Numbered from the stretch's first letter, positions 514 through 62,518 are shown. The stretch is DNA of 64,000 bases from an uncultured virus (IMG/VR IMGVR_UViG_3300025789_000033) (IMGVR_UViG_3300025789_000033); one strand, 5' to 3'. Notes: generated by a model not told the origin, from the sequence alone. Translations and numbers: made by a program.

Positions 514-909
514 TCAATACTTAATAAAAGAACCATTTTCTCCGTCTTCGGAGACCTCAATCCAGATCTCACGATCCGGATACTTTTGTGAGATTTGAGC
601 ATATAAATCATCGCTCATCATCTCGCAACTTTTATAGTCTAGCGACAATACACCTTGTTCGCTAGAATACAACCTTTCAAGCCATCGCTTGAACTGTATG
701 AATTCCACATCTCGGTCGTTATGAGTAACTCCGAGCCATACCCTAAAGTGAAAGATATGGCGATGAGGAGTGCCAAGAAACGAAACGTCATAATAATCTC
801 CTGTTGCTAGGTTAGGGTCTGTTGCGGCGGCTGGGTAGCAATGAATGCCTTCCTTACGGAAAGTAACCCAGATCATTTTATTTGGTCGAATGTCTTGTCG
901 AATAATCAT
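514..909 (-). CDS. dpdL: QueD/PTPS-like T-fold protein, DpdL-like
   Basis: Motifs EGIHxYP, LGTPHRHIF (LxxxHRHxF), HNDRDVEF, SCE and C-terminal VSEDGENG. It is QueD-sized but lacks the CxxxHGH motif of true QueD. Confidence 0.65.
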   Translation of the reverse strand: MIIRQDIRPNKMIWVTFRKEGIHCYPAAATDPNLATGDYYDVSFLGTPHRHIFHFRVWLGVTHNDRDVEFIQFKRWLERLYSSEQGVLSLDYKSCEMMSDDLYAQISQKYPDREIWIEVSEDGENGSFIKY

Positions 910-1481
910 ACAGTTTCTTCAAAGAGTGAGTTGTAAGTTGATATAGCCATGTTTTCAAATGTTTTCATGTCTTCATCGCTTAGTCTAAAAGAATAGGACT
1001 TAGATTTTGGCAAATGCACTTGCTCAAAGTATCCATAAAAACCTTCGTATGGGGTATATCCAATATTTTCATTCATTGTAATTAATGTTTTAGCATTGTT
1101 ATATGCTTTCTCTATTAATGATTGAATGTGCGGAGCAGAAAAGTCGTAGACTCTTGCTTCAATAATTATACCATCTTTAATTTTAATTCTTAATTGTTGC
1201 TGGAATTTCTTCCATACATTTGAATTACGATAGTCATTGTTAATAATATCTTCAGGTTGCATATCAGCAATAGTTTGCGCACTAGTTGCCCCAACATCTC
1301 GAGTTTTTACTTCAAGACCGTAAACTAGTATATCTGCTCCACGACCTCGATTAATAGGAACACCCATGTATTCAAGCAAGTTTTCAACAGCTCTACCTGC
1401 ATGACCTCCAGCACTTGCTGGTACCGTTTTGCCAATTAATTGATTAGCAATTTTAAATACTTTAACTTTTGCCTTTATCAT
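906..1481 (-). CDS. PD-(D/E)xK endonuclease, MutH/Sau3AI/MvaI-BcnI-like
   Basis: GRAVENLLEYMGVPIN...ADILVYGLEVKTR gives the E...D...ExK catalytic arrangement typical of this family. 4-bp overlaps with both neighbours. Confidence 0.6.
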   Translation of the reverse strand: MIKAKVKVFKIANQLIGKTVPASAGGHAGRAVENLLEYMGVPINRGRGADILVYGLEVKTRDVGATSAQTIADMQPEDIINNDYRNSNVWKKFQQQLRIKIKDGIIIEARVYDFSAPHIQSLIEKAYNNAKTLITMNENIGYTPYEGFYGYFEQVHLPKSKSYSFRLSDEDMKTFENMAISTYNSLFEETV

Positions 1482-2002
1482 TTGATAATTTCATCATTCT
1501 TATATTGTGACCAGTCTGTAAACTTAGTTCGATCCATTAGCGTATGTAGACTGTGGGACCATACACCGGGATTAGTTGCCTTAAAATCTTTATCATCTAT
1601 TTTAAGCATTGTATTATAATTCCACAATTTAATGTAAGGAATTGGCACTCTTATTTGTGGAATAAAGTTACTATGATCGTTTAGTCCACCATCATTAAAT
1701 TCTTCCACAGCTGATAGCGGGATATCTAAACTGCACAGGTATCCATCACCTAGAAAGTATTCAATCATTTCTTCCCATTTCTTCCATCCGGCGTAGTCAT
1801 TGAATACTGGATTAAAACTATGGTTAGCTCCAAAAAAGATATGTCCACATTCATTTTTTACTGCATGAAATGCAATTTGATCAATCTCTTGGAGACCTGT
1901 AACAAACAGCGTTTTTAATCCATATGCAGGAGTATGTTCAACTTCAGTACCGACAAAGAATATAACTTTATCGCTTATACCAGTGGTGTAATCACGCTTC
2001 AT
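1478..2002 (-). CDS. Conserved-looking hypothetical protein in the modification operon
   Basis: 174 aa with motif-like segments GTEVEHTPAYG, HIFFGANHSF and DDKDFKATNPGVW. Confidence 0.8.
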   Translation of the reverse strand: MKRDYTTGISDKVIFFVGTEVEHTPAYGLKTLFVTGLQEIDQIAFHAVKNECGHIFFGANHSFNPVFNDYAGWKKWEEMIEYFLGDGYLCSLDIPLSAVEEFNDGGLNDHSNFIPQIRVPIPYIKLWNYNTMLKIDDKDFKATNPGVWSHSLHTLMDRTKFTDWSQYKNDEIIK

Positions 2003-2249
2003 TTGTGTTCTTTCCTTCTTCCCAATACTTAATCATACGAGTTACATCTTCCATACGTTCCTGTATAACATCAGGAGACGCACGTTCTAACATTTTTAGA
2101 TTGTGATAACTAGGATAATGCCTTAAGCACCAGCGAGCTTGCTCACGTATTTCTTTTGGAATACGTGGAGTTTTTTGAGGATTAAGCAAATCCGTTAGAA
2201 ACTGTTCTGTTCGTTGTATGCTTCTAAAGCGTTCGTCGGGCAATGTCAT
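1992..2249 (-). CDS. Small conserved phage protein (MTLPDER...LRHYP type)
   Basis: Start reassigned to the ATG at 2249, which removes the overlap with the upstream gene and lies directly behind a sigma70 promoter. Confidence 0.75.
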   Translation of the reverse strand: MTLPDERFRSIQRTEQFLTDLLNPQKTPRIPKEIREQARWCLRHYPSYHNLKMLERASPDVIQERMEDVTRMIKYWEEGKNTNEA

Positions 2250-2255
2250 ATATGC

Positions 2256-2284
2256 ATTATAACAATAGTTGTAAATAAAATCAA
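2256..2284 (-). promoter_or_regulatory. Sigma70-type promoter, probably giving a leaderless mRNA
   Basis: TTGATT-17 bp-TATAAT, then 6 nt, then the ATG at 2249. Confidence 0.7.
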
Positions 2285-3501
2285 TCGTTTTGGTCGAGTT
2301 CATCAAACAAAAACGGTGAACCTTTAAAATAATTATAGCCAAAGAATTCATCCATTCTAGATAAACTAAATCCTGAGAATAAAATGGGCGGTCCATTTGC
2401 AGGTAATCCCATATCATACGCACGTTGATTATATGCCATTAATTTCCTAAATTCAATATCTTGTGCTAGATTATCTTTTGAATTTTTACTAGCTTGTTGC
2501 CAAAATTCTGTATCAAATTTACTACCACCGTGGTAGATATAGTTAATAATGCGTTCTAAAGTTTGTGCCAATCGAACTTGTTCATCATTGGCTTGATTTT
2601 GATCCCATTGACCTGTAACATAGTTAAAAATTATAGTACATACATTAGTATAATGATTAATTGATGTAGCACTAATAGGTTCAAAGAAGATAGCACGATT
2701 ACCATTCTTGATAACTCTGTTATCAACTAGCTTGGTAGTATAATACGGTTTAAATTTGTACTCTTTAGTATCTAATCCATCTACGGTCACGTTCAGTAAC
2801 TCAGCCATATCAGCTTTTGCATCTTCAAGAGTGGTAATAGTATCATTAAATAAGTAGCCGTAGGTTTTTCTACTGGTCAACGGTATGCCAAACATCCATC
2901 CATTTTTAGTTGCAAAGTGTTCAGTATATTGAATAGGATCAAACTTATCAAGACTATGTACTAGACATCTATTTAGAATACTACAAGTACTCATATGATA
3001 GTCTTCAGAATAGTCTGTTGGAAATCCTCTGCAATCTACTACATAATCAAATTCTTCTGTAGTGCCATTTATTTCTACAATAGCTTTATCGGGATTATTA
3101 ATTAGATCAGTTACAGTACCTTCAATTACAGAAAACTTTTCAGGCCAGCACAGGTTTAATCTTTCAAATACAAATTCTTTCAATTTGAAATTATTAAAAT
3201 GTACTGCTACTCCGCCTTGCAGTAAGGGATTTAACCAATCTTTTTTTCGCCAGTTAATATACTTTGTTCCAAATTTAAGAGTACTATCTAATGATTCGGT
3301 ATCTTCGTACAGAGTGAATCGTGTACCTTTTTCTAATAAGGCAACAAATCCAGGATTGGTACTTTCACCAATTCCTAAAATAGGAATTGATGGGTCATAT
3401 AATGAAACAATTTCCCATTCATTACTAAGATTTGAACACAAATGAGATAAAGTCAGCACACCTGCACTGCCTACTCCTAGTACGCCAATACGCCTTTTCA
3501 T
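2281..3501 (-). CDS. Flavin-dependent tryptophan-halogenase-family protein
   Basis: GVGSAG FAD motif, GIGEST, STLKFG (candidate catalytic Lys region), DCRGF, GWMFGIPL (variant of WxWxIP) and FFEPISATSI. Confidence 0.8.
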   Translation of the reverse strand: MKRRIGVLGVGSAGVLTLSHLCSNLSNEWEIVSLYDPSIPILGIGESTNPGFVALLEKGTRFTLYEDTESLDSTLKFGTKYINWRKKDWLNPLLQGGVAVHFNNFKLKEFVFERLNLCWPEKFSVIEGTVTDLINNPDKAIVEINGTTEEFDYVVDCRGFPTDYSEDYHMSTCSILNRCLVHSLDKFDPIQYTEHFATKNGWMFGIPLTSRKTYGYLFNDTITTLEDAKADMAELLNVTVDGLDTKEYKFKPYYTTKLVDNRVIKNGNRAIFFEPISATSINHYTNVCTIIFNYVTGQWDQNQANDEQVRLAQTLERIINYIYHGGSKFDTEFWQQASKNSKDNLAQDIEFRKLMAYNQRAYDMGLPANGPPILFSGFSLSRMDEFFGYNYFKGSPFLFDELDQND

Positions 3502-5120
3502 TTTAATTGATCCTCTAATTCTTCTAACTTGCTAATTTGATCATCTGTAAACTCGCCGTCTTCCATTGACACAGTTTCATCAGTTGGATTAACTTCTTCA
3601 AATAGATTATTAAACATTGTATGTGAGTTTAATGTTTTCTTACCAGTAGCACCTCGAGTACCAATAATGCTCATCCAGAATCTGCTGTATTCTTCAACAA
3701 CTGCATCTGCTGTTCCGCGATCACTAGTAGCAAATATTGCTTCTACAACATCTTTAAAATATAGTCTGTCAAACTTTTCTTGTACTAGCATATTAGGACA
3801 GTTGCCTAGATCGTATTGACGATTAGCTTCTTGCACACTATTAACGTGCATCCACACGTTATGGCCCATCATAATCGCATAGGTAAAACTATCCCAGCTA
3901 GTACGTCCAACTTTACCAATTTTATTTTGATCAGGCATTATAATCCAATGTGCAGGATTATATGGATCTAAAATTGTGCCAGGTGTAACATTTGGATTAG
4001 GAGTACCTGCACCGTATATACAAATATCTTTTATTTGAACACCGTCCATGATTGGACTAGTTGTAAACTTAGAAAATATATTATCTTGTATTACTGCGTC
4101 TTGGAAGAGTCGTGTGTCTGTGGCATATTTTTTATCGTCTGCAGAAGCCTGCATACGGTAGACCCATTTTGTCCGATTGTCTGTTTCTGTGTTAGTGTAT
4201 ATTTGTCCGTTTGCAGTTGCAAGGAACGGACTTGCGCAATCAAAAGAGATGGTAAAGTTTTCATTATGGTATTTCCTAACAGCACGTTGAATATCGGTTA
4301 AAAGAACTGCCCACTCTAATTTAGAAGTTCCCAAGAAGTGCATCCAATCTTGCTGACCTTTTTCAAGAAGTCCATCAAATCTTAGTGCCACTAGACGTTT
4401 TAATGTCAAGTGTATATCACACATATTCTGTCCGCCCATACCCCAACCATTAAAATGCCTATCTCCATATTGCTTTGGATCGCAATATTTTTTCATGCGT
4501 TGATACCAATCTTCAGCATCAGTATGAGTTTCGCCTTGAAGAACATTTAAGAATTTACAATTGCCATTACGATTATTAACAAAGTAATCATTATTGATAT
4601 AAGTTCCTTGTACAGCTTCTGCATATGAACTAATACCAGTGGCCGCAACACCTGCAGGACTACGAGCAACCCAAGCAGGAATATCAAGACCCATGCCATA
4701 ATCCATTAGCGTATCCATCCAGGTTAGTACCTGTTGGCGCTTCTTCATTGCTTTTGGACAGTTAGGATCTTTCCAATCAGCGGGCCAAACACCTTTACCA
4801 ATCTGGAATCCACCTGAGTCACCTAATACCCAACTAGTAGCACGATTGCGATTACGGAACATGTCCTCGCTTTCGTCCGGCTTATTAAGATCTAAATTAG
4901 CATGTCCTGCTGAATACAAACAATGATCATAGTAAAATGCACCTTTGTCTGGATCTAGGTAATTAAGACTTTCAACACCGTTTTTAAAACTTGTAGGAAC
5001 GCGAGCCGGATCAACATAGTTGCTGTAGCGTTGTTTACCTACAAACGTAGAATAAAAGCCACTAGTTGCTGGTAAGAATACAGCATAGTCGTTTTGTGTT
5101 GCAGTTAAATTTTTATTCAT
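3498..5120 (-). CDS. dpdA: tRNA-guanine-transglycosylase-like protein; DpdA-family 7-deazaguanine insertase
   Basis: TGT barrel motifs in the correct order: DSGGFQ, LDIP, VLQG, GWGMGG, HFLG and FDCAS. No tRNA-TGT zinc site (CxCxxC) is evident. Confidence 0.75.
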   Translation of the reverse strand: MNKNLTATQNDYAVFLPATSGFYSTFVGKQRYSNYVDPARVPTSFKNGVESLNYLDPDKGAFYYDHCLYSAGHANLDLNKPDESEDMFRNRNRATSWVLGDSGGFQIGKGVWPADWKDPNCPKAMKKRQQVLTWMDTLMDYGMGLDIPAWVARSPAGVAATGISSYAEAVQGTYINNDYFVNNRNGNCKFLNVLQGETHTDAEDWYQRMKKYCDPKQYGDRHFNGWGMGGQNMCDIHLTLKRLVALRFDGLLEKGQQDWMHFLGTSKLEWAVLLTDIQRAVRKYHNENFTISFDCASPFLATANGQIYTNTETDNRTKWVYRMQASADDKKYATDTRLFQDAVIQDNIFSKFTTSPIMDGVQIKDICIYGAGTPNPNVTPGTILDPYNPAHWIIMPDQNKIGKVGRTSWDSFTYAIMMGHNVWMHVNSVQEANRQYDLGNCPNMLVQEKFDRLYFKDVVEAIFATSDRGTADAVVEEYSRFWMSIIGTRGATGKKTLNSHTMFNNLFEEVNPTDETVSMEDGEFTDDQISKLEELEDQLK

Positions 5121-5471
5121 TTAGATCCAATGTTGTGCTAGTACCATTAAGCTCAACCAAGCCCACATAGTATTAAATCCTACTAGCGTCGGCAATGCTT
5201 TTTTACGACTGGCCCAAATTAATGTTACGCTAGTTAATAGTGTTAAGTAATATAATTCCCAGATTTGAATACCAAAGATTAATCCGGGAATGATAATAAT
5301 AGCCTTTGCCCACCAGCTGACAAATTCTACAGTATTATAGGCAGTCCAATATTCTCGAGTAAACCACATACCGTAGCAATCTTTTATATTGCGCCAACCG
5401 GTATGTGTATAACATATTACTATTAATACTGCCCATAAGCCTACTGCTAATAATATTTGATCAGTAGTCAT
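5121..5471 (-). CDS. Small multi-pass membrane protein
   Basis: 116 aa, about four hydrophobic segments, Trp-rich, abutting both neighbours. Confidence 0.75.
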   Translation of the reverse strand: MTTDQILLAVGLWAVLIVICYTHTGWRNIKDCYGMWFTREYWTAYNTVEFVSWWAKAIIIIPGLIFGIQIWELYYLTLLTSVTLIWASRKKALPTLVGFNTMWAWLSLMVLAQHWI

Positions 5472-6202
5472 TATTTGCTCAATGCTGGTAAAATATAGTT
5501 GTATTCAGCAATACCGCTGTCTACAGTAATTTGCATAGCGCCTGAGTCTGAAATCTTCATAGACAAGTCACCTGGCAATGCCAAAATGCTTTGTACTTGT
5601 TGAACAGGCCAAGACAATGTTTGACGCAACTTACCAGTAATACCGCTTTGGAATGTAAATGATCCTGCGTGTGTGCTCGAGTCACCAAAGCTAAACACTA
5701 GATCACTGCCTTCAGTTTTAACTTGGAAACTTGTTTCTTCTGTATGTGCCGCGGCTTGATACTTCAGTTTCTGAATTGATGCAACTGTAGGCTCTACAGT
5801 AACGTCCCAACTAACGCCTTTGAACTTAACAGTTTTAAGTTTTTCATTAATAACTTCATTGTTCATGAAACGATAATCGTTTTGGAAGTCACCTGTTGCA
5901 TTTTGAAAATGCAAACCTGTTTGTACATCTTCTCCGTTGCGTTGTTGTGTAACAACATTAATGCCAGCACCTTCTTTGTACTCTGGGCACTTCAAGTGTA
6001 AGTCTAACTTGTTCAAGTTAGGCATACCAAATGTACCTTCAAAGTTCTCAATAGGCTTGTGTGTTTTTGCATTAAAGATAACTGAACGGTCTTCAGCCAT
6101 TGATTCGATTGCTGTTTCTTTATCTGTTGCTGATACTTTAACTAAAGGCAGGAAGCCCAAGCTGTGTGTATGTGCTACTAGGTCTTGTAAAAAGTCTTTC
6201 AT
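5471..6202 (-). CDS. Probable DNA polymerase sliding clamp (gp45/PCNA-like)
   Basis: 243 aa from MKDFLQ (GGAG RBS). Clamp-like size and C-terminal YNYILPA. It is near polB, and a clamp loader is present in the window. Confidence 0.6.
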   Translation of the reverse strand: MKDFLQDLVAHTHSLGFLPLVKVSATDKETAIESMAEDRSVIFNAKTHKPIENFEGTFGMPNLNKLDLHLKCPEYKEGAGINVVTQQRNGEDVQTGLHFQNATGDFQNDYRFMNNEVINEKLKTVKFKGVSWDVTVEPTVASIQKLKYQAAAHTEETSFQVKTEGSDLVFSFGDSSTHAGSFTFQSGITGKLRQTLSWPVQQVQSILALPGDLSMKISDSGAMQITVDSGIAEYNYILPALSK

Positions 6203-6222
6203 ATGATTCTCCATGTTGTGTT

Positions 6223-6250
6223 ATTATATAGGTTTTTTTGACTATGTCAA
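6223..6250 (-). promoter_or_regulatory. Sigma70-type promoter for the clamp-dpdA-halogenase operon
   Basis: Perfect TTGACA-16 bp-TATAAT. The -35 lies inside the inverted repeat TTGAC-ATA-GTCAA. Confidence 0.75.
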
Positions 6251-6253
6251 TGA

Positions 6254-7027
6254 TTATTTTCTTATTTTGTTGTTGTATTTCACCACTTCTTCTACAACGG
6301 TTATAGGTGTATTTAGGTTTTGCGCATACTTTATGAAGGCATTTGTGTCTTTAGGAAAACAAGCACCACCAAATCCAAAACTACCATCGGGTCCGGGAAC
6401 ATCCATATGGCTCAACCCAATTCTAGTATCTGCAGAGACTAACTGCTTGACTACTTGATAGTCAGCACCATTAGCTTGGCATATTTCATAAATTTGATTA
6501 AAGAACGCAACCTTTGTACTTAAGAAATTATTAATTGCGTATTTGACCATACTAGCTTCGGTAATACTGCATGGCAAATAAAACTCGCATTTCTTAAGAG
6601 CAGGCCCAAACAACGTTTCCCAGAATTGATTTACATCTTCGCCGCCGATAATCATGTATTCTTGATTTAGGAAATCTTCATTAGCAGTTGCCGCACGTAA
6701 AAACTCTGGGCTATAACAAATATTATGATTAGGATAATCAATTACTATTTGTGATAGTTGATCAGGTGGTACAGTTGACTTAATTAATATTGGCAAATTT
6801 TCTGGAGCATTTTCTAATACTGCCCGAATCTGTGAATCGTCACATACTCCGTTTGGTAAACTAGGAGTACCAACACATACAATAATACCTTTTGCTGTTG
6901 GAAAATCTGCAATGGTATTTGTATTGTACGCTGGGTCAATTATATTAATAGTGTGTATGTCTTTAAGACTATTCCAAACGGCTTTGCCTACAAAGCCGTA
7001 TCCTGCAAGTGTAATTTCTGTGGTCAT
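6254..7027 (-). CDS. ugd: UDP-glucose/GDP-mannose dehydrogenase family protein lacking the C-terminal domain
   Basis: Motifs GYGFVG, VCVGTP, IKSTVPP, SPEFLR, KYAINNFLSTKVAFFN and GFGGACFPKD. Start reassigned to MTTEIT; 257 aa. Confidence 0.85.
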   Translation of the reverse strand: MTTEITLAGYGFVGKAVWNSLKDIHTINIIDPAYNTNTIADFPTAKGIIVCVGTPSLPNGVCDDSQIRAVLENAPENLPILIKSTVPPDQLSQIVIDYPNHNICYSPEFLRAATANEDFLNQEYMIIGGEDVNQFWETLFGPALKKCEFYLPCSITEASMVKYAINNFLSTKVAFFNQIYEICQANGADYQVVKQLVSADTRIGLSHMDVPGPDGSFGFGGACFPKDTNAFIKYAQNLNTPITVVEEVVKYNNKIRK

Positions 7028-7028
7028 A

Positions 7029-9698
7029 TTAAAACTCGAATAAACTGTTAAATGTGTTTTTTTCTTCTGTACTGCGAACATCCCATTTAAGTACACCAAT
7101 AAGATTGTCTAGTTTCTTATCAATAATGGCCTGCTCCATCTCAGTATGATTAAAGGGCAAGTCTTTAAACCACTGCGGCAATCTGAGCTCATCTACTGGA
7201 TAAGCTACGCTTGTAAATCCTAATGGATTATCTTTAAGTTTGCAGACAATAACTTTTGCACCATCAGTGATGTTGGCACTGTACTTGTCATCAAACATTC
7301 GTTTGAGCGTATTCCAATTAATACTGGCTCGAACGTGTCCTGGCATGTTGGCTTTACCTGCCTTCTTTTCTTTAGCTTCATAGTCGGTAATATTGTTAGC
7401 ACGTTTAGGGCTACCTTTTTCCCAACCAGGCCGTGTTTTAAATTTAAGACGGAACTCGCTAATATGATCTAGAACAACTTGTTCGCTAGCACCTGTTAGA
7501 ACTTTTTCTAATACATCACTTAAGAAGTCTTGAATGAATTCAGGAGTATCACTACGCTTCAAGTCCAATCCCATGGCCTTGATCTTGCCTGGCTTACCAT
7601 CTACGTCACTGCGCTTGCCTTCCTTGTCATAGTACAAGACAGCATAACGCTTCTTAGTAATAAACAAGCCTTTGATAGCAACAATTTCACGACCAGCTTT
7701 AATAACTTCACCACGTGATTTAGGAACGTGGAATGAATCTAGCATGAACTGTGGAAATGTAGTATTAACTTCCTCACCAATTTGGTCGTATAGTTGTACT
7801 ACACTTTCTTTAGTCCAGGGAATTAATCCCGCTTCGATGTCCTTCTGTAAAGTGCGAAAAGCACTAAAATAACAAGAATCAGTGTCACCATATATAATTG
7901 CCTTTCCTCTATAATCATATTCGCCGGCAACAATCTCGTTGACCTTACCAGCCATGTGTTTAACAATTTGTCGACCAGTTAAGGTAGTTGATTGTCCAAT
8001 CCGCTTATCAAAGAACCTACAACCACTGTTAAGAATAGCACCATACAAACTATTCAAGTTAATCTTCTTAACGAGTTGTCGTTTGTCCCAGTATTCTTCT
8101 TCGACTTTGTTGCCTGCTTTGATTGCTTCTTTGAGTTTGGCCTGCATCTCTTTACGTTCCGCATACCAACGCTTTAGTAGTCCAGGGATAATACCTTCAT
8201 TTTCATATGAAAAGATAGTACCATTGGCGCTTAGTGTCCAAGGCTGATTACTTTCAAATATCAATCTGTAACATTCTGCGGCACTAAGAACATCACTATC
8301 TCCATTCTCCCAGTCAACTGTAATGTCTGTACCAATCTCTTGGTTCATTACGGCTGTATATTCTAACGATCCAAAGATACCTTCCCATGCCGCGGCAAAA
8401 CTTTTACCCTTGCCAATTTGTGTTTCAATGTATTCGTCAGTCATTGTTTGGCGTAACTGTCCAACAATAGTTTCTGGTCCCATGTTTAGAGCACGAATTG
8501 CTGATGGGTAAAGTGAGTTAATGTCTAATGAACCAATCCAATCGTGAATGCCTTCTTTAGGATAAGCAACATATGCACCAGCGGCACCTTCGTTGTTTTC
8601 ACGGTCATCCATTTTAGTACGATTAGGTACTTGGAATCCTCGACGATGTGCTTCATTAATAATAGCCTGTTCAGTTACAGCCACAGCACCCATTGTAGTC
8701 TGGAGCAATACAGTACACTCATGCGCTAGTGTATTGGCAAGATCCATAAACTTTAGTTTCTTATCTAGATCGTCTAATAGCTTACAGTCATTACGGTTAT
8801 ATTCAATGAATGTTTTAAAATCATTGTTGTATAATTGGTCGAGCGTACCTTCATATTGTGTTTTACGTTGACCTAACTCATATTCCGCAATGGCGTCAAG
8901 TCTATAACTGTGGCGTTCTTCATACGTATACTTACGGTACAGCTCAAGATAGTCTAAGTGAACGCGACCAATGTAGTCATAAGTTACACTATCACGACCA
9001 AACTTTTCATATTCTCTGCGTTTAGGAAATTGGTCAAATAAACAAAAACGGCGGGTATCTTCTTTTGATAATGCTTTAGTTACTCTATTTGTAGTATATG
9101 GAATATCAAAGCCTTCTGAGTTCCAACCACTTAAAATATCTGCATCTTTAATCAGATCAAGAAATACATCTAACATTTCTGCTTCTGTTTTATAAAGCAT
9201 TGTATTAGGGAACTCTTTAACTTGTTCTAACGCTTCTTCCATTGTAATAGTCTTTGGAGGAACTGCTAAACATACCATAGTTTCCATCCATTGTAGGTAG
9301 ACAGCAATCGCAGTAATTGGCATGAAAGCATCATCAGGACTTGCATAGCCACGCTCTGGATCAAAGTCTACCTCAATATCGAAAAATGCTACGTTTAGTT
9401 TAGGTGCGTCTTGATTAATGTAGTTTTCGCTTAGACAAACAAATATTGGATTAATATCAGCTTCAAACAATTGCTTACCTGAATTGATAGCTTGTTCTTT
9501 TCGTAGTTCTTTAGTGTTTTTACAAATAACCCTGTTAAGAGGATCTCCGTAAATAGATTGAAATTTGCCGCGTGGGTCTTTATAGTAAAACGTGTGCTTG
9601 ACAGGAATGTCACGGAATACACGCTCACCTTTCTTATTGCGTTCGACTACTTTAATAACATCGTTATTACGGTCAAACCATGCATCTACATAGCTCAT
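7029..9698 (-). CDS. Family B DNA polymerase (T4 gp43-like)
   Basis: Exonuclease motifs FDIE, GWNSEGFD and YNRND; polymerase motifs DINSLYPS, KINLNSLYG and YGDTDS. Confidence 0.97.
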   Translation of the reverse strand: MSYVDAWFDRNNDVIKVVERNKKGERVFRDIPVKHTFYYKDPRGKFQSIYGDPLNRVICKNTKELRKEQAINSGKQLFEADINPIFVCLSENYINQDAPKLNVAFFDIEVDFDPERGYASPDDAFMPITAIAVYLQWMETMVCLAVPPKTITMEEALEQVKEFPNTMLYKTEAEMLDVFLDLIKDADILSGWNSEGFDIPYTTNRVTKALSKEDTRRFCLFDQFPKRREYEKFGRDSVTYDYIGRVHLDYLELYRKYTYEERHSYRLDAIAEYELGQRKTQYEGTLDQLYNNDFKTFIEYNRNDCKLLDDLDKKLKFMDLANTLAHECTVLLQTTMGAVAVTEQAIINEAHRRGFQVPNRTKMDDRENNEGAAGAYVAYPKEGIHDWIGSLDINSLYPSAIRALNMGPETIVGQLRQTMTDEYIETQIGKGKSFAAAWEGIFGSLEYTAVMNQEIGTDITVDWENGDSDVLSAAECYRLIFESNQPWTLSANGTIFSYENEGIIPGLLKRWYAERKEMQAKLKEAIKAGNKVEEEYWDKRQLVKKINLNSLYGAILNSGCRFFDKRIGQSTTLTGRQIVKHMAGKVNEIVAGEYDYRGKAIIYGDTDSCYFSAFRTLQKDIEAGLIPWTKESVVQLYDQIGEEVNTTFPQFMLDSFHVPKSRGEVIKAGREIVAIKGLFITKKRYAVLYYDKEGKRSDVDGKPGKIKAMGLDLKRSDTPEFIQDFLSDVLEKVLTGASEQVVLDHISEFRLKFKTRPGWEKGSPKRANNITDYEAKEKKAGKANMPGHVRASINWNTLKRMFDDKYSANITDGAKVIVCKLKDNPLGFTSVAYPVDELRLPQWFKDLPFNHTEMEQAIIDKKLDNLIGVLKWDVRSTEEKNTFNSLFEF

Positions 9699-19205: not shown

Positions 19206-19832
19206 CTATGCTTTAACGATGCGTTCTATTTTAGATATTGCACCGCCAAGGTGCATTTTAGTTAATAGTAAGGTGTTTTCGCCAGTAACGTAAAAGTGTG
19301 TACCACCCCAGGTTCTTGACTTACTAAGCTCTTTTTTGCAACTTTTAGTAAGTTTTAACTTGTCACGACCTTCGGCCCATTCAATAAATGCTTGGTAATC
19401 TTGGTTAGTTTTGCCTAAAGTTATGCGATAATCATAATTTGTCTTAGGCATTATGATTGTATTGAATGTTAAAACGCTATCTTTTGCTGGTTGTGATATG
19501 TATTTTACGTTGTCCTTGTTTAACTTGGTTAACACTTCTACATGCTTATCACTATTAGTGTATACAGAAATCCAAGGCGATTCTACTCTGACCTCTATGT
19601 CATTCATAGTTTTTAAACTTGTTGCAAGTTGAATAGAATAATCTAACTGATCTGTTGTTTTGATACTGTGAATTCTCCAAGAGTCATCCGGCTTAGGGAA
19701 TCTGGTATTGCCTAATATTTTTAAGGCAGATTCCATATCCCCTGTCCGAAATGCACTTGCGCCAGCGCATATCAGTACTATCTTGTACTGATATTTGCCT
19801 TTAAATAACCTTCTAGTTGTCTTGTACAACAT
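19206..19832 (-). CDS. Hypothetical protein
   Basis: 208-aa ORF overlapping the end of clpA. Confidence 0.75.
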   Translation of the reverse strand: MLYKTTRRLFKGKYQYKIVLICAGASAFRTGDMESALKILGNTRFPKPDDSWRIHSIKTTDQLDYSIQLATSLKTMNDIEVRVESPWISVYTNSDKHVEVLTKLNKDNVKYISQPAKDSVLTFNTIIMPKTNYDYRITLGKTNQDYQAFIEWAEGRDKLKLTKSCKKELSKSRTWGGTHFYVTGENTLLLTKMHLGGAISKIERIVKA

Positions 19833-22086
19833 CTTCTAAATTACTCTCAATTGCTAACAATGGAATTTTAGAAATCTTTGGTTTAACAATCAATGAAATT
19901 TTATCTGCTTCAACGCCAATAGTTACCCAACCACCTGTTTTCAAATCACCAAACAACATTAGACGAGCAAGGTCACGTTTAATTTCCTTGTCAATAACAC
20001 GTTGTAAAGGACGAGCACCCATTTTGCTATCAAAGCCCTTGTCAATAAGCCAATTAATAGCTTCTTTATCAATCTTGATACGGATACCTTTGTCTTTAAC
20101 TTGATCTTTAAGCTGGTCAATAAACTTGTTAACAATTTTAACCATTGTTTCTTTGCCAAGTTTATTAAATGTAACAACACCGTCTAAACGATTACGGAAC
20201 TCTGGAGTTAAAAACTTCTTCAAGTCTGCATCACTGTAGTCTTTATCCTGTTTACCAAATCCGATAGCATTTTTCTCTGCAGATTGTGCGCCAGCATTAG
20301 TAGTAAGAATAAGAACAATGTTACGACAGTCTGCTTTCTTACCATTAGATCCTGTAATAAAGCCGTTATCCATTAACTGTAGTAATACAGTCATAACATC
20401 TGGATGTGCTTTTTCAATTTCATCTAACAACAGAACAGCATTAGGTGCTTCTTGGATGCTAGTAATTAACTGACCTGCATTTTCTTCAAAGCCAACATAA
20501 CCTGGAGGGCTACCAATTAACTTACTAATGCTATGCTTCTCTTGATATTCACTCATATCAAAGCGTAGTAGTTTAACACCTAAGTTTTTAGCAAGTGATT
20601 TAGCAGTTTCAGTCTTACCTGTGCCTGTCGGGCCTATGAACACAAACGATCCAACTGGTTTATTTTCTGTTTTCAATCCAGCTTGTGCTACTACAATTTT
20701 ATCTACAATTTCAGTAATAGCAATTTCTTGACCATATACTTCTGTTTCAAGTTTAGTTTGTAGATTAATTAAATTAACACTTTCTGTTTCAGAAACTTGT
20801 TCTTCTGGAATATTAACCATCTTGCTAAGTTCGTATTGCACTTCGCGTTCACCAATAACTCGTTCGTCTGCAAGTTTTAAGTTAAAACGTGAGCAGGCAA
20901 CATCAATTAGGTCAATGGCCTTATCTGGCAACTTCTTGTCTGTTTGATATTTAACTGACAACTTAATTGCGGCATCAATAGCATCGTCCTTAATTTTTAC
21001 ATTATGGAATGTTTCGTAATACTTCTTAATACCTTTAAGAATTTGTCTAGTAACTTCAATTGTAGGCTCGTCAACAGTAATACGTTGGAAACGACGCATC
21101 AACGCACGATCCTTTTCAAAGTGCTTACGATATTCTTCCCATGTAGTACTGGCCACAACTTTAATGTTGCCTTTGCTCAGTGCCGGCTTCATCATATTAG
21201 CGAGATCGTTAGCTGAGTTGCTAGCGGATCCTGCTCCGGAGATCATATGTGCCTCGTCGATAAACAGCACAGTCTTACCTTTCTTGGTTAGAGCTTTTAG
21301 AACTTGTTTGAAACGTTCTTCAAAGTCGCCACGATATTTAGAACCAGCTAACATAGCTGAAATATCTAAGTTGTAAACTGTATAGTCTTTTAAGAAATCT
21401 GGAACAGCACCATTTACAATGTTATGCGCCATACCTTCTGCAATAGCAGTCTTACCTACACCTGGATCACCAACTAAGATAACGTTGTTCTTACTACGGC
21501 GACCTAATGCAAGTGCGATGTTTTCAAGTTCATCTACACGACCAATAACTGGGTCAATTTTATTCTTCTTAACCTGATCATTTAAATTAGTAGTAAATGC
21601 TTGTAGAGCTCGGTCCCCTGCTGAATCAGGTTGCATTTCTTCTTGCCCGTTGTCGATATTGTTATTCAAGTATTCAGCAAATTTATCTTTATCAATATTT
21701 GCTTGAGCAACATAGAATTGCGCCCAACTACGCTTCTCGCCCATCATAGCAAGGAACACATCAGTAGGCTCAATGCGTTGACGTCCGTTGAACAAGACCT
21801 GCGTGAACGCACGATTAAGTACACGTTCAACAGCTTGTGTCTTTTTAGGTTTAACTACAACATCTGGTACAGTAATTTCACTGCACTTGTTATGCAAGTA
21901 GTCTTGTAAGTTTGCTTTAAGTGCAGAAGCATCCGCACCAAACCCTTGAATACAGTTAGTAAACCCATCTTCTGCAAGCATAGCAAACAATAAATGTTCT
22001 ATTGTTAGATATTCATGGTGAAGTTTCTTAGAAGTTTCTATAGCTCTTTCAAAGACCGCTTGAAGATTATCACTAGGTTCAACCAT
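19813..22086 (-). CDS. clpA: ATP-dependent Clp protease ATPase subunit ClpA
   Basis: Clp N domain, two Walker A motifs (GDPGVGKT, GPTGTGKT), GSKYRGDFEER, GYVG pore loop, IGF ClpP-docking loop and no long middle domain. Confidence 0.95.
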   Translation of the reverse strand: MVEPSDNLQAVFERAIETSKKLHHEYLTIEHLLFAMLAEDGFTNCIQGFGADASALKANLQDYLHNKCSEITVPDVVVKPKKTQAVERVLNRAFTQVLFNGRQRIEPTDVFLAMMGEKRSWAQFYVAQANIDKDKFAEYLNNNIDNGQEEMQPDSAGDRALQAFTTNLNDQVKKNKIDPVIGRVDELENIALALGRRSKNNVILVGDPGVGKTAIAEGMAHNIVNGAVPDFLKDYTVYNLDISAMLAGSKYRGDFEERFKQVLKALTKKGKTVLFIDEAHMISGAGSASNSANDLANMMKPALSKGNIKVVASTTWEEYRKHFEKDRALMRRFQRITVDEPTIEVTRQILKGIKKYYETFHNVKIKDDAIDAAIKLSVKYQTDKKLPDKAIDLIDVACSRFNLKLADERVIGEREVQYELSKMVNIPEEQVSETESVNLINLQTKLETEVYGQEIAITEIVDKIVVAQAGLKTENKPVGSFVFIGPTGTGKTETAKSLAKNLGVKLLRFDMSEYQEKHSISKLIGSPPGYVGFEENAGQLITSIQEAPNAVLLLDEIEKAHPDVMTVLLQLMDNGFITGSNGKKADCRNIVLILTTNAGAQSAEKNAIGFGKQDKDYSDADLKKFLTPEFRNRLDGVVTFNKLGKETMVKIVNKFIDQLKDQVKDKGIRIKIDKEAINWLIDKGFDSKMGARPLQRVIDKEIKRDLARLMLFGDLKTGGWVTIGVEADKISLIVKPKISKIPLLAIESNLEDVVQDN

Positions 22087-22571
22087 TATTTAAATTTCCT
22101 TTGTTTTTTCTTTGCCATTTTTAATTTTAAATCACTTACGTATTCTGTAAATGTTATTCCATCTAAATGATCCAACTCATGTTGAAAGCATCTAGCATCA
22201 ATACCCTCAAGTTCTATTATACATTTTTTGTTTGTATTGTCAAGATACATGGCTGTAATTTTATTATGACGAGCAACTTTCAACCATAAATTAGGAAAGC
22301 TCAGACAACCTTCTTCGCCACTGACAAAGTTATTATCGCCTAACAAGATCCACGGATTAAAAAATCCCAATTCACGTCCGTCTTGCAATTTCATAACAAA
22401 CACTCTACGTAGTAATCCAACTTGGTTACCAGCAAGACCGATACCGTTAGATGCTCGCATAATCTCAAGCATTTCACGTTCGATTACTGCGGCATTAACG
22501 TGATTTTCAAAGTCCCACGGTTCGGCTTTTTGTTTTAGTATTGGATCAGGATCTTGAACTAATTTCAACAT
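22086..22571 (-). CDS. def: Peptide deformylase
   Basis: GIGLAGNQVG, EGCLS and QHELDHLDG motifs. Confidence 0.95.
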   Translation of the reverse strand: MLKLVQDPDPILKQKAEPWDFENHVNAAVIEREMLEIMRASNGIGLAGNQVGLLRRVFVMKLQDGRELGFFNPWILLGDNNFVSGEEGCLSFPNLWLKVARHNKITAMYLDNTNKKCIIELEGIDARCFQHELDHLDGITFTEYVSDLKLKMAKKKQRKFK

Positions 22572-23403
22572 TTAGTGCTTTAAGTTTTTCTACTAGACTA
22601 GGATCAGTAATTGCTGGAGTTTTAATGTTTACAACGATTACTAATCGACCTTTCTGACCAGTATTAATATTAGGGAAACCGTTACCGTTGCTGGCGAATT
22701 CTGCGCCAGACTCGATACCTGGACGAATGTCAACATCTAATTTTTGACCAGTGATTGTTTTAACACTTTTATTACAACCGATCATAGCTTCAATTGGAGA
22801 TATGTATAACGTAGTGTACATATCATCACCGGCTCTTCTAAAGTTAGCATCTGGCAAGACTACAATGGTTACATTAAGATTTCCTCTAGGAGCTCCTGGT
22901 ACACTATCGTCTCCAAGCCCGTTATATCGAATAGTTTCTCCGTGGCTTATACCAGGCGGCACATTAATGACTACTGTTTGAGTCACACCGCTTGGCATTT
23001 TGTAATTTGCTTCTAATTGTTTTCCTAGATAGCTGTCTAAAATAGATATCTGGCATTGTATATTCAAGTCTCTATTTCGACGCATTTGTCCACGCATGTT
23101 ACCGAATATATCTCCAAAAGGATGACCTTGTGGAAAGCCTTGACCAAACATATGTCCAAACGGATCAAACCCACCGGTAGTAAATCTTACTTCAGGTCCA
23201 CCGCCATACATACGTTGTTGATCGTATTCAGCTTTTTTCTGTGCGTCACTTAGTGTGTCGTATGCAACACTAATGTCTTTAAATTTGGCTTGGTCTCCAC
23301 CTTTATCTGGGTGATGTTTATTAGCCAAAGATCTGTATGCTTTTTTTATTTCTTCTGGGCTAGCACTTTCGCTAACACCTAGTGTTTGGTAATAATCAGT
23401 CAT
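22546..23403 (-). CDS. dnaJ: DnaJ-class (type II, CbpA-like) co-chaperone
   Basis: J domain with HPD, a G/F-rich region and DnaJ_C; no zinc finger. Confidence 0.92.
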   Translation of the reverse strand: MTDYYQTLGVSESASPEEIKKAYRSLANKHHPDKGGDQAKFKDISVAYDTLSDAQKKAEYDQQRMYGGGPEVRFTTGGFDPFGHMFGQGFPQGHPFGDIFGNMRGQMRRNRDLNIQCQISILDSYLGKQLEANYKMPSGVTQTVVINVPPGISHGETIRYNGLGDDSVPGAPRGNLNVTIVVLPDANFRRAGDDMYTTLYISPIEAMIGCNKSVKTITGQKLDVDIRPGIESGAEFASNGNGFPNINTGQKGRLVIVVNIKTPAITDPSLVEKLKALNVEISSRS

Positions 23404-45956: not shown

Positions 45957-46715
45957 TTAATAACCACCAGTTAAGGGTGATCGTTTCCATGTGTTAGTTG
46001 CTGTACAAATATATATGTAATTAGAATCATAACTTATCTGCCCAGTTGTTCCTGCGGCATTTGCGGCTTTAGTTCCTGTTGGAATAACTAAACCATTTGG
46101 GATGGTAACAACGCCAGTTGTACCTATAACTAAACTACCGCCAGCTCCAGGAATATTAAAACTCATACTGCTAGCAGTTGCATTGTATGGAACATAACCA
46201 GTTGCATTATGATTTAATGAATCATTAGCAATACCGAATGCTTCATTGCCTGTTCCTATAGCAAACACAGCTCCGGTTGTACCATTGGCAATTTTTAATG
46301 TGTAATTTGTAGCATTGGAAGTATCTGTAATTGTTTGACCGGTTGTACTGAGAGCAACATAAGTCCCATCTCCGCCGCGCGGACTAGCATCAACCCAGCT
46401 ACTATCATAATAAACATACAGCCTACCACTATTATCATCATACCATAATGTACCTTCTGGATGTGTACCGGGAGGAGTTGCACTAGCAGTAATTGGCGCC
46501 GCACTAGGAGAGGGAGTCGGAAGTGTAGACCAACTTAGTGTAGTGCCGTTGGTAGTTAAAAACTTACCACTGTTACCTGTTGGACTTGGCAAATATGTAG
46601 ATAAATTTGCATACAGTTCTGTAAAGTTAGTATTAATTTTATTAAACGCAGTACGCAATGGATCCGCACTTACGCTGTTAGCCGACGGCCCAATATTAAT
46701 TAGTTGTTGTGTCAT
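45957..46715 (-). CDS. Short tail fibre/baseplate protein with a gp9/gp10-like N-terminus
   Basis: INIG..AN....DPLRTAFNKINTNF at the N-terminus and GQISYDSNYIYIC..NTWKR at the C-terminus. Confidence 0.7.
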   Translation of the reverse strand: MTQQLINIGPSANSVSADPLRTAFNKINTNFTELYANLSTYLPSPTGNSGKFLTTNGTTLSWSTLPTPSPSAAPITASATPPGTHPEGTLWYDDNSGRLYVYYDSSWVDASPRGGDGTYVALSTTGQTITDTSNATNYTLKIANGTTGAVFAIGTGNEAFGIANDSLNHNATGYVPYNATASSMSFNIPGAGGSLVIGTTGVVTIPNGLVIPTGTKAANAAGTTGQISYDSNYIYICTATNTWKRSPLTGGY

Positions 46716-58503: not shown

Positions 58504-58827
58504 TTATACTCCGAAACTGCTACCGCAGCCGCATGTGTTTGTTGCGTTTGGATTCTTTATAGTAAAACTACTACCCATTAACTCTTCTTTATAATCTATC
58601 TCAGCACCAGTTAGATACGTCATGCTCATTGCATCTATTAGTACTCTAAATTCATCTAAGGGGATTTCAAAATCGTCTTCGTTCGCTACTTCATCTAAGG
58701 TAAAACCATAACTAAAACCGCTACACCCGCCGCCTTGCACGAAAGTTCGTAGTGCTAAATTTGGGTTTCCTTCGTCATAAAGGATATCTTTGATTTTTGT
58801 TTTTGCTGATTCTGTAATTGTAATCAC
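58504..58827 (-). CDS. erpA: A-type Fe-S cluster carrier (ErpA/IscA/HesB)
   Basis: [15 protein letters not shown] and CGCGSSF motifs; GTG start with a GAGG RBS. Confidence 0.9.
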
Positions 58828-58847
58828 ACTTGTAGCCCTCGATTGAG

Positions 58848-58884
58848 TATTTATCAATACCATTTTATAACCTTAATGTAAATA
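58848..58884. promoter_or_regulatory. Divergent pair of TAAATA late-type motifs
   Basis: Minus-strand copy at 58848-58853 and plus-strand copy at 58879-58884, each just before a gene start. Confidence 0.55.
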
Positions 58885-59992: not shown

Positions 59993-60556
59993 TTATTTAT
60001 TTTCTAGACCAATCCTACTTGAGATAATATTCCAGTTCATAATTTTCCACTGGTTATTGAGATATGATTTTTTGTCACTTCCGTAATCGAATTGAAACGA
60101 GTGTTCCCACCAATCAATTAAGAGTACAATATCCATCTTAATTTCGTGATTTTTAATAGTTTTAATCTTACCATCGCGAGCTAGATATACCCAACCACTG
60201 CCCTGTATTTTCATTGCTTCTTTTTCAAAAGCATCTGTAAACTTATCAAAAGTCCTAAAGTGTTTAGTGATAAACTCTCCAGCAGATCCGTCTGGTTCGT
60301 TTGATCTACTAGGTTTTTGAAACTGTGTAAAGTATATGTCGTGTAAGAACGCACCAGCTTCATTAAAATCAGCATCACCTTCACCGTCATTAAAACGGGT
60401 AACATAGGCTTTATATAACTTGCCATAATGATAGTTAATAGTATCCACACTCATACTAGGTTCTAGATCGTCCTTGGCATAGGGCAACTTGGTTTGAACT
60501 AGGGTTTTAGGACTTTTACCTTCGTTTAGAGTGATATGCTTAATAAAGTTGTACAT
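59993..60556 (-). CDS. sod: Fe/Mn superoxide dismutase-like protein
   Basis: LPYAKDDLEP, YHYGK, LHDIYF, GSGWVYL and DWWEH; all four metal ligands appear to be present. Confidence 0.88.
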   Translation of the reverse strand: MYNFIKHITLNEGKSPKTLVQTKLPYAKDDLEPSMSVDTINYHYGKLYKAYVTRFNDGEGDADFNEAGAFLHDIYFTQFQKPSRSNEPDGSAGEFITKHFRTFDKFTDAFEKEAMKIQGSGWVYLARDGKIKTIKNHEIKMDIVLLIDWWEHSFQFDYGSDKKSYLNNQWKIMNWNIISSRIGLENK

Positions 60557-60561
60557 AATGA

Positions 60562-60578
60562 TATTTAGCGCATAAATA
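60562..60578. promoter_or_regulatory. Back-to-back TAAATA late-type motifs
   Basis: TATTTA-GCGCA-TAAATA between divergent genes. Confidence 0.6.
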
Positions 60579-60597
60579 TTCTACAGGAGATTTAACT

Positions 60598-60825
60598 ATG
60601 TTAAAATTTATTAAAAGTTTTTTTGCTAAAAAACAAGCGGCAGTTGCAGAAGTGCCTTACAAGGTAGAAGTTGCTCCAGTAGTAGAACCAACACTAGTTG
60701 CAGTTCAAGCTACAGAAGCAATGGTCGAATCAGTTGCACCTGCTAAAAAGCCACGTAAGCCTAAAGCAGAAAAAGCACCAGCTGTTAAAAAGCCACGTGC
60801 TCCAAAAACGCCTAAAGTAGTTTAA
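60598..60825 (+). CDS. Small Lys/Pro/Ala-rich protein
   Basis: AGGAG RBS and a KKPR-repeat tail. Confidence 0.75.
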   Translation: MLKFIKSFFAKKQAAVAEVPYKVEVAPVVEPTLVAVQATEAMVESVAPAKKPRKPKAEKAPAVKKPRAPKTPKVV

Positions 60826-61837: not shown

Positions 61838-62019
61838 TACCAATGCCTTATGACGCCTGCGATTATAAAAGTGTTTGTAAGTACATATGATAACACAATT
61901 AGGGTACGAATGCAAGCAATTCGGTCTGATTCTTTGTCCGTATTGCCTGCTTTCTCACCTAATGCTTTGGCCCAAATGCGCCAAAAATACTTAACCTTCG
62001 TATGTAGCCGAATTAGCAC
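61837..62019 (-). CDS. Small phage membrane protein (WRIWAKALGEK...RHW); start uncertain
   Basis: Fills the queD-uvsE gap. The nearest usable start is a GTG at 62019 inside the end of queD. Confidence 0.5.
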   Translation of the reverse strand: MLIRLHTKVKYFWRIWAKALGEKAGNTDKESDRIACIRTLIVLSYVLTNTFIIAGVIRHW

Positions 62020-62518
62020 CGTGTTCAAATACTTCAACTGATTTAATCCTAACGGTTGGATTGATTGGGTAACGCATATCACCAGACGCTAAAAGCTCAG
62101 CCATTTTGTCATAGCACATTTTGGCAAACATTTCACAGCCTACTCCCGGTACAATGCGTAGATCACAGATACCTTGACGGCGGTATGGTTCAACTTGAAC
62201 ACGATCTGGATTGCCATCGTGCTCTGGATTACTGCTCCAGCCTGACATTTCTTTAAAACGATCTAACATTGGATCATCTTCTGCAATAACCAATGTGTGA
62301 TCGAACATAGAGTCTGCCCACGCTTTGAATTCTTTGAGTCCACCGAAGTCCATGCACCAGTTTTTATCATCTAGTGTGTCACATTCAAAGATTAGTTTAA
62401 TACCAATTGAATAACCATGCAATGTCGAGCAATGACTGTGTGTGGCACGCCATTGTCTAAAACAGCATGAAAGTCCGCGGTCATTACCGTATGTTTTTGT
62501 TGAGTAAAATTTTGCCAT
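61991..62518 (-). CDS. queD: 6-carboxy-5,6,7,8-tetrahydropterin synthase (QueD/PTPS family)
   Basis: SHCSTLHGYS, DFGGLK, FDH, GCE and VEVFE motifs; AGGAG RBS. Confidence 0.85.
   Translation of the reverse strand: MAKFYSTKTYGNDRGLSCCFRQWRATHSHCSTLHGYSIGIKLIFECDTLDDKNWCMDFGGLKEFKAWADSMFDHTLVIAEDDPMLDRFKEMSGWSSNPEHDGNPDRVQVEPYRRQGICDLRIVPGVGCEMFAKMCYDKMAELLASGDMRYPINPTVRIKSVEVFEHGANSATYEG

Follow-up and report, generated by a model that had tools for sequence, protein, structure and literature searches.

We analysed a stretch of 64,000 nucleotides from the uncultured virus IMGVR_UViG_3300025789_000033, which is called the window throughout. Its guanine plus cytosine (GC) content is 39%, its minus strand holds nearly all genes, and the phage genome from which it derives is very large. 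One virus record of 39 kb, identical to the window across the region searched, is rated 11% complete, and we take the source to be an uncultured jumbo phage of about 350 kb. Comparisons across genomes were made on related virus records. Two adjacent genes are the subject of this work. The first encodes a 540-amino-acid (aa) DNA transglycosylase of the DpdA3 subfamily, and the second, which overlaps its 3' end, encodes a 406-aa flavin-dependent halogenase. A preliminary description regarded the two genes as translationally coupled and proposed that the halogenase modifies the 7-deazaguanine that DpdA would place in DNA. We lean towards another reading, in which the halogenase is optional accessory cargo that would act on a small-molecule aromatic substrate unrelated to the DNA base.

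The two genes lie within a conserved block, whose order in the syntenic records is DNA polymerase, (UDP-glucose/GDP-mannose dehydrogenase-like gene), w247, (w116), DpdA3, an 85-aa gene, w174, (w191), DpdL and w82. The features of the window are collected in Table 1.

Table 1. Positions of the DpdA3 and halogenase genes and of associated features in the window, with the basis of each assignment (TGT, tRNA-guanine transglycosylase)
Feature	Position	Strand	Basis
DpdA3-subfamily DNA guanine transglycosylase, 540 aa (P0002)	3498..5120	-	TGT fold, PA5oct homology
Short flavin-dependent halogenase, Trp-halogenase type, 406 aa (P0001)	2281..3501	-	PF04820, fold
ATGA overlap, DpdA3 stop and halogenase start	3498..3501	-	Direct sequence reading
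Spacer 3' of the halogenase stop, with promoter-like site	2250..2284	-	Consensus match only
85-aa conserved protein	1992..2249	-	Start MTLPDER, as in the gene directly 3' of DpdA3 in halogenase-less relatives
174-aa conserved protein	1478..2002	-	Synteny in nearly all relatives; unmatched in Pfam and PHROG
191-aa protein	906..1481	-	Present in some relatives
DpdL, proposed 7-carboxy-7-deazaguanine decarboxylase	514..909	-	PA5oct QCG76199.1 homology, signature
247-aa conserved protein (w247)	5471..6214	-	phrog_12062; syntenic PA5oct EST35_0314 is annotated as virion structural protein
Candidate promoter, perfect sigma-70 consensus TTGACA-16-TATAAT	6223..6250	-	12/12 matches
Family B DNA polymerase, upstream anchor of the conserved block	7029..9698	-	phrog_262, E 6.5e-197; synteny
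QueD-like 6-pyruvoyl-tetrahydropterin synthase	61991..62518	-	PF01242, E 5.4e-16; phrog_2389; Cys kept, CSTLHGY

The overlap reported in the preliminary description is present, and both minus-strand open reading frames (ORFs) lie where it had placed them. The four shared nucleotides read TCAT on the plus strand and ATGA on the coding strand, where the halogenase ATG overlaps the DpdA3 TGA. A GAGGA sequence is found about 9 nt 5' of this ATG, within the end of the DpdA3 gene. Overlaps are common in the window: among the 51 same-strand adjacent pairs of its gene list, 15 overlap, six of them by 4 bp, and 24 either overlap or lie at most 3 nt apart. The DpdA3/halogenase overlap is no more than chance or genome habit would give. 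On the other side of the halogenase, the true start of the 85-aa gene is the ATG at 2249, and the listed 143-aa ORF is an upstream extension of it. The spacer between these genes carries the promoter-like site TTGATT-17-TATAAT at 2284-2256 (-), in a region where 32 such sites were found against a mean of 28.2 in shuffled sequence, which is no excess. The perfect sigma-70 consensus precedes the gene run w247, w116, DpdA3 and halogenase.

The 540-aa protein has no match in the Pfam, PHROG or NCBIfam models or among PDB sequences, and a phmmer search of the PDB with its residues 60-320 also returned none. The Pfam TGT model PF01702 matches neither this protein nor any of 73 members of its family at E up to 0.1, and a profile of the 73 sequences reaches TGT rows in the PDB only at non-significant E of 1.8-2.8. 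Though found in no profile library, the gene was correctly called dpdA in the preliminary description, as its fold and its homology to PA5oct DpdA3 indicate. The AlphaFold model (predicted local distance difference test, pLDDT, 89.7) retrieved only TGT structures among the top 50 Foldseek rows (best E 3.7e-7). In VIA it aligned with Thermotoga TGT 2ash_B at Z 19.7 (305 residues aligned, root-mean-square deviation, rmsd, 4.5) and with the archaeosine TGT 1iq8_A at Z 19.2. Residues D101, S102 and G104 (in GDSGGFQ) and D294 (in SFDC) are invariant across the 73 relatives. These are what we take to be the two catalytic-Asp motifs of TGT, represented in Z. mobilis by D102 and D280; the residue match comes from the motifs and from a weak profile alignment of residues 96-221 with TGT residues 101-234 (E 1.8).

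The subfamily assignment comes from phage PA5oct, whose protein QCG76197.1 is 35% identical over 99% of the query (E 6e-84) and is assigned to DpdA3 in Supplementary Data S1 of Cui, Hutinet et al. 2023 (PMC10516641). According to the same source, the published DpdA3 was itself detected only by HHpred. The cultured relatives of the window protein are limited to PA5oct-like Pseudomonas jumbo phages, Sinorhizobium phage Phosso and a Vibrio phage. The link to DpdA3 rests on PA5oct and the published table, because the family profile found no match in the genome of Campylobacter phage CP21, which encodes a DpdA3. We conclude that the 540-aa protein is a DpdA3-subfamily DNA transglycosylase. The family is very large, with more than 7,700 database proteins at 90% clustering and 961 clusters at 50% identity.

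The genes around DpdA3 correspond to a known pathway. The protein at the left end of the conserved block is 55% identical (E 1e-46) to PA5oct QCG76199.1, which is given as DpdL in Supplementary Data S1 of PMC10516641. It reads LGTPHRHIF, fitting the published DpdL signature LxxxHRHxF, which replaces the CxxxHGH of QueD (PMC10516641). FolE is present in all five related records, and a QueE-like radical SAM gene adjoins it in four of them. QueC scored above the cut-off in none of the five, including a complete 372-kb genome with terminal repeats. For the phage of the window, we infer FolE and QueE from a 223-kb relative with a 90%-identical DpdA3, in which the block extends past the window's left end with a phosphoribosyltransferase, an HIT protein, FolE, the QueE-like radical SAM gene, a 2-oxoglutarate (2OG) oxygenase and a 5'-3' exonuclease.

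By its gene content, this set is a predicted phiST-type 7-deazaguanine (dDG) DNA-modification cluster. FolE, QueD and QueE would make 7-carboxy-7-deazaguanine, DpdL would decarboxylate it to 7-deazaguanine, and DpdA3 would then swap guanine in DNA for this base. Since FolE, QueD, QueE, DpdL and DpdA3 are found and QueC is absent, the expected product is 7-deazaguanine with a free C7. The claim of the preliminary description that C7 would be free after decarboxylation is thus apt. 7-Deazaguanine has been measured in phage phiST (PMC10516641). In E. coli, the authors of that study reportedly failed to obtain working DpdA3 and DpdL. The phiST and PA5oct systems share with the phage group of the window DpdA3, DpdL, FolE, QueD and QueE without QueC, and PA5oct also has its cluster beside the DNA polymerase. 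PA5oct and the phage of the window differ in that the PA5oct DpdA3 is only 35% identical and is followed by a glycosyltransferase-like gene, where the window has the halogenase. The restriction resistance pattern of PA5oct DNA points to a modified G (PMC12191111).

Two PA5oct genes were also compared with proteins of the window. EST35_0317, the gene behind DpdA3, was rejected as a halogenase homologue for want of homology, and the window's 174-aa protein does not resemble the epimerase-like EST35_0320, as whose counterpart it was rejected. A phosphoribosyltransferase and an HIT-family protein lie between DpdL and FolE in a relative (G002, L187:7839-9079), and in PA5oct a phosphoribosyltransferase adjoins QueE (L002:11949-12383). 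With a phosphoribosyltransferase near the cluster, a nucleotide form of the deazapurine could be made, besides or instead of base exchange.

The naming of the downstream gene as a halogenase also holds. The 406-aa protein matches the Trp_halogenase family PF04820 (E 4.6e-30, 105.3 bits against a cut-off of 21) and phrog_2928 (E 3.7e-73). Its model has a pLDDT of 92 and aligns in VIA with SttH 5hy5_B (Z 38.9, rmsd 3.1, 381 residues), BrvH (Z 37.1) and PrnA (Z 35.4), with about 375-381 of the 406 residues aligned. The fold is common to SttH, AbeH, BrvH, PrnA, RebH, Thal, BorH and VirX1 (about 375 of 406 residues, Z 30-39). As in the characterised Trp and indole halogenases, there are a GxGxxG motif for flavin adenine dinucleotide (GVGSAG, residues 9-14, with G9, G11 and G14 invariant) and a catalytic Lys. 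The Lys check proposed in the preliminary description gave K76. All 51 family members have this Lys, and it aligns with K79 of BorH 6ul2_A (HMMER alignment) and with the catalytic Lys of Thal. The window halogenase differs from the characterised enzymes in being about 100-130 residues shorter and in two motifs. The WxWxIP motif is degenerate, as had been pointed out, and reads WMFGIP at residues 202-207. This is a family trait and not decay, because W202, F204, G205 and P207 are invariant in the family (WxFGxP, 51/51). The Glu of the EPLES motif, presumably E346 of PrnA, is replaced by S277, which falls in a variable column of the wider family. This Glu is typical of Trp halogenases, not of all flavin halogenases.

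The motif changes bear on a caveat of the preliminary description, by which the protein might be a flavin monooxygenase or hydroxylase, acting on deazaguanine or on another substrate without halogenating it. The Phe in place of the second Trp of WxWxIP throughout the family and the missing EPLES Glu would fit such an enzyme, as would a weak NCBIfam match to QhpG (E 5.7e-4). That match, at 18.9 bits against a cut-off of 240, is far under the threshold; K76 is invariant and aligned with the catalytic Lys of BorH and Thal; and all 50 VIA matches listed are halogenases, with Z of at least 27.8. We therefore consider a non-halogenating function very improbable. The gene encodes a true halogenase-type flavoenzyme, as judged from sequence and model, and halogenating activity is predicted. 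By analogy with characterised enzymes, it would use reduced flavin (FADH2) from a host flavin reductase, O2 and halide to form hypohalous acid, and Lys76 would guide this acid to an electron-rich aromatic substrate.

The gene is intact and under purifying selection, with a ratio of nonsynonymous to synonymous substitution rates (dN/dS) of 0.07 against a relative with 89% amino-acid identity; the value for DpdA3 is 0.065. Two other properties were not informative. The GC content of the halogenase gene is 33.3%, against 39.0% for all coding sequence of the window, but its neighbours at 906-1481 (33.9%) and 1478-2002 (35.0%) are similarly low, so that this is no sign of recent import. A basic charge as the mark of a DNA-binding halogenase does not discriminate either: the window halogenase has an isoelectric point (pI) of 5.05, the median is 5.31 for DpdA3-adjacent halogenases and 6.07 for the others, and DpdA3 is acidic too.

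The distribution of the two genes was compared in 80 viral loci retrieved with the DpdA3 profile (61-90% identical; flanks of at most 6 kb per side). The halogenase occurs in one of these loci, and 79 have none within the flanks. In close relatives (DpdA3 81-86% identical) the 85-aa gene is directly 3' of DpdA3, and it is precisely at this junction that the window has the halogenase ORF, followed by a 31-nt spacer. In the halogenase-less locus L013 the same AAATGA joins DpdA3 to the 85-aa gene, the stop of the former overlapping the ATG of the latter. The ATGA junction is thus ancestral, and the coupling is a property of the DpdA3 3' end that would pass to any gene inserted at that start codon. 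The preliminary description had taken the overlap as a sign of a link between the two enzymes, and this argument is weak, given the same ATGA in L013 and the frequent overlaps of the window.

A search from the halogenase side gave seven more viral loci with the same gene order and the same ATGA (halogenase 60-61%, DpdA3 61-66% and DNA polymerase 85-88% identical), and in the junctions examined of other halogenase-bearing lineages the ATGA is retained down to 60% halogenase identity. In the halogenase tree, the DpdA3-adjacent proteins form one clade with 99% support in the Shimodaira-Hasegawa-like approximate likelihood ratio test (SH-aLRT). In the DpdA3 tree, the bearers fall into two groups (2 changes) in a subclade of 22 sequences, 15 of which are halogenase-less. 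A single old insertion with several later losses would account for this pattern, as would a cassette exchange of the pair. The pattern is not independent evidence of shared function.

The relatives that carry dpdA with the halogenase absent or unlinked, which the preliminary description itself had set against its proposal, are largely what was observed: besides the 79 loci without it, the complete 372-kb relative and another that is 72% complete have no PF04820 match, and one relative, 93% complete, carries a 44%-identical halogenase more than 200 kb from its DpdA3. This record is the sole one with DpdA3 among 49 further halogenase-holding records searched for it (out of 66 non-adjacent loci), and it is also the only nearly complete one of them.

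Between DpdA3 and the 174-aa gene, the relatives have a slot of variable content (L025:6978-8770, L028:7785-9544, L039:7523-9297, L048:7657-12034, L060:7541-8683, L040:7707-8363). It holds a pair of a GFO/IDH/MocA oxidoreductase and a Zn-alcohol-dehydrogenase in nine loci, the Zn-alcohol-dehydrogenase alone in two, radical SAM enzymes of 218-409 aa, and one SulP-family permease (sulfate permease). A related phage record of 257 kb (G006:C1:140000-187000, behind L043) has 20 Radical_SAM matches, most of them within about 47 kb. An SulP/STAS anion permease also adjoins a halogenase homologue in a Vampirovibrionales metagenome-assembled genome (MAG; L279:6215-7876), and the SulP permease of the phage slot is that of L048. 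SulP/SLC26 transporters can carry halides, and the nearness of permease and halogenase may be coincidence.

The halogenase family is also found far from DpdA3. From the 66 viral loci in which the halogenase is not beside DpdA3, 64 nearest-neighbour proteins were surveyed: 25 are 2OG-Fe(II) oxygenases, seven are further halogenases and none is a TGT, while others include a carbamoyltransferase and replication genes. Among five complete cultured phages with a member of the family, none has a TGT match (0/5) or a FolE match (0/5). Bacterial homologues (40-49% identical), from MAGs of Vampirovibrionales, Vulcanimicrobiota and Polyangiaceae, stand alone among unrelated genes, and no queuosine or TGT family was found among 68 neighbouring proteins at 34 loci. 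The cyanophage and pelagiphage proteins known as tryptophan halogenase (T4-like gene cluster 212; S-SSM5, S-SSM7, S-ShM2, HTVC008M) are of the same family, phrog_2928, with 25-41% identity over at least 84%. Like the window gene, cyanophage homologues overlap an unrelated upstream gene by 4 bp, gp33 in S-SSM5 and talC in S-ShM2. Their 2OG oxygenase neighbours are frequent. In these phages the gene belongs to no DNA-modification cluster, unlike that of the window; it is located in variable islands or adjoins structural and metabolic genes. The cyanophage cluster of halogenase, 2OG oxygenase and carbamoyltransferase has been read as secondary-metabolite or capsule chemistry (Iyer et al., PMC7824862). 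The caveat of the preliminary description that such genes are common mobile cargo was right.

Replication genes near the homologues suggest a further possibility, namely that the enzyme acts on another nucleic-acid-related substrate, such as host queuosine precursors, the nucleotide pool or tRNA, in host takeover or anti-defence. Homologues often lie amid deoxycytidine monophosphate deaminase, the ribonucleotide reductase small subunit, 5'-3' exonuclease and RNA ligase, the CP21 homologue adjoins a DNA ligase, and the phosphoribosyltransferase and HIT genes between DpdL and FolE of relatives might be counted here as well. Those replication genes are, however, core modules in which T4-like and jumbo phages commonly have cargo slots, and nothing found points specifically to any such substrate. 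We regard this explanation as quite improbable.

The reading of the preliminary description is that the halogenase tailors the DNA modification. It would halogenate C7 of free 7-deazaguanine, the DpdL product, before insertion by DpdA3, or C7 of dDG in DNA. The outcome in both cases would be 7-halo-7-deazaguanine as a genomic base of a minority lineage among freshwater-type jumbo phages. The chemistry is plausible in the dDG context. The cluster lacks QueC and its expected end state has hydrogen at C7; the invariant Lys argues for real halogenase chemistry; and the Glu needed by Trp halogenases is absent from the family, which would fit a more activated ring, by analogy with pyrrole and phenol halogenases. 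The fold is close in rank to that of BrvH, which we take to be an indole halogenase. The decarboxylating brominase Bmp5 is a precedent for flavoenzymes that release CO2 as they halogenate, and 5-iodotubercidin indicates that natural halogenated pyrrolopyrimidine nucleosides (7-deazapurines) exist, although neither involves genomic DNA or DpdA.

Several observations speak for tailoring and weigh against accessory cargo. The deazaguanine cluster encloses the halogenase gene, with DpdA3 on one side and DpdL on the other, and purifying selection on this gene is as strong as on DpdA3. Its subclade (at least 59% identity) is directly behind DpdA3 in 14 of 14 viral loci, and nowhere else, with the overlap kept in the junctions examined; in a metagenome scan at the same identity, DpdA3 is directly upstream in 8 of 8 assessable loci, some of whose contigs are shared with the viral set. 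More suggestive than this adjacency is a second, phylogenetically separate halogenase clade (41-43% identical), inserted between QueE and the 5'-3' exonuclease of related phages. The order there is QueE, a 23%-identical halogenase, a 148-aa gene, a 2OG oxygenase, a 42%-identical halogenase and the exonuclease. Two loci (L136:1-5300, L142:100-5010) have the extra 22-23%-identical paralogue just upstream of the second-clade halogenase, and L136 also shows QueE at that end; in L145:620-2790 only the halogenase beside the exonuclease is visible, and a relative of the window has the same QueE-exonuclease stretch without a halogenase. A homologue, though a distant one with 24.7% identity, is likewise present in the DpdA3-encoding Campylobacter phages CP21 and IBB_35.

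The exclusive adjacency is, however, explained by vertical inheritance after a single insertion, as the one clade with 99% support indicates. The frequency comparison suggested in the preliminary description has two sides, with the halogenase's own subclade always beside dpdA and only one of the 80 DpdA3-profile loci carrying the gene. The halogenase is missing from most relatives, and its family occurs in phages without a TGT or FolE match and in bacteria without linked queuosine genes. Its acidity says little, because DpdA3 is acidic too. In the DpdA3 alignment no residue separates halogenase bearers from the rest, the only candidate, position 256, being common to 44% of nearby halogenase-less sequences. 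This missing co-adaptation is weak evidence against tailoring, because DpdA enzymes tolerate different 7-substituents (PMC10516641). The term halogenase does not occur in PMC10516641 or its supplement, and a literature search yielded no description of a halogenated genomic base, nor of any halogenase associated with DpdA. Of the proposal of 7-halo-deazaguanine, the C7 context is sound; the linkage is weak, with the halogenase absent from 79 of 80 DpdA3 loci. We consider tailoring of the base by this enzyme unlikely.

The slot enzymes (radical SAM proteins and oxidoreductase pairs) and the glycosyltransferase-like gene of PA5oct could likewise be alternative tailoring steps. That they belong to one diversifying hypermodification locus, with halogenated deazaguanine installed by DpdA3, is a doubtful extension of the same idea.

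We thus prefer the reading of the halogenase as accessory cargo, the genomic argument for a functional link with DpdA3 being weak. The gene probably entered once, at the pre-existing ATGA between DpdA3 and the 85-aa gene, and would have been inherited by a minority lineage, with a role that may resemble that of its relatives in cyanophages, pelagiphages and bacteria. In this account the identities of the genes, their synteny, the distribution of the insertion and the purifying selection are observed, while all enzymatic activities and the substrate are predicted.

Other genes of the window were noted in passing. Between the DNA polymerase and w247, at 6254-7099 (-), there is a truncated UDP-glucose/GDP-mannose dehydrogenase-like ORF that comprises just the N-terminal and central domains. 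From its listed TTG start it shares 71 nt with the end of the polymerase gene, and some relatives carry a version that is 38-79% identical. Among tail and baseplate-like genes, at 46715-58501 (-), is a single ORF encoding 3,928 aa. Host-like auxiliary genes (19813-23403, 58504-58863 and 59993-61915) encode an ATP-dependent protease with two AAA domains, a peptide deformylase, DnaJ, an IscA-like Fe-S assembly protein, an Fe/Mn superoxide dismutase and a UvdE UV endonuclease. In other relatives (L125, L130, L135) a halogenase is inserted beside the IscA-like gene.

These analyses indicate that the genes for 7-deazaguanine DNA are present as a set across a whole group of uncultured jumbo phages, and they place in DpdA3 a very large unannotated protein family, none of whose 73 tested members is detected by Pfam. 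The stretch between DpdA3 and DpdL can be regarded as a slot where enzymes come and go. If the halogenase did act on deazaguanine, its product would be the first halogenated base in any natural genome and a chemically distinct, added layer of phage restriction evasion. The enzyme would then also be a source of 7-halo-7-deazapurines, which are handles for cross-coupling chemistry on DNA.

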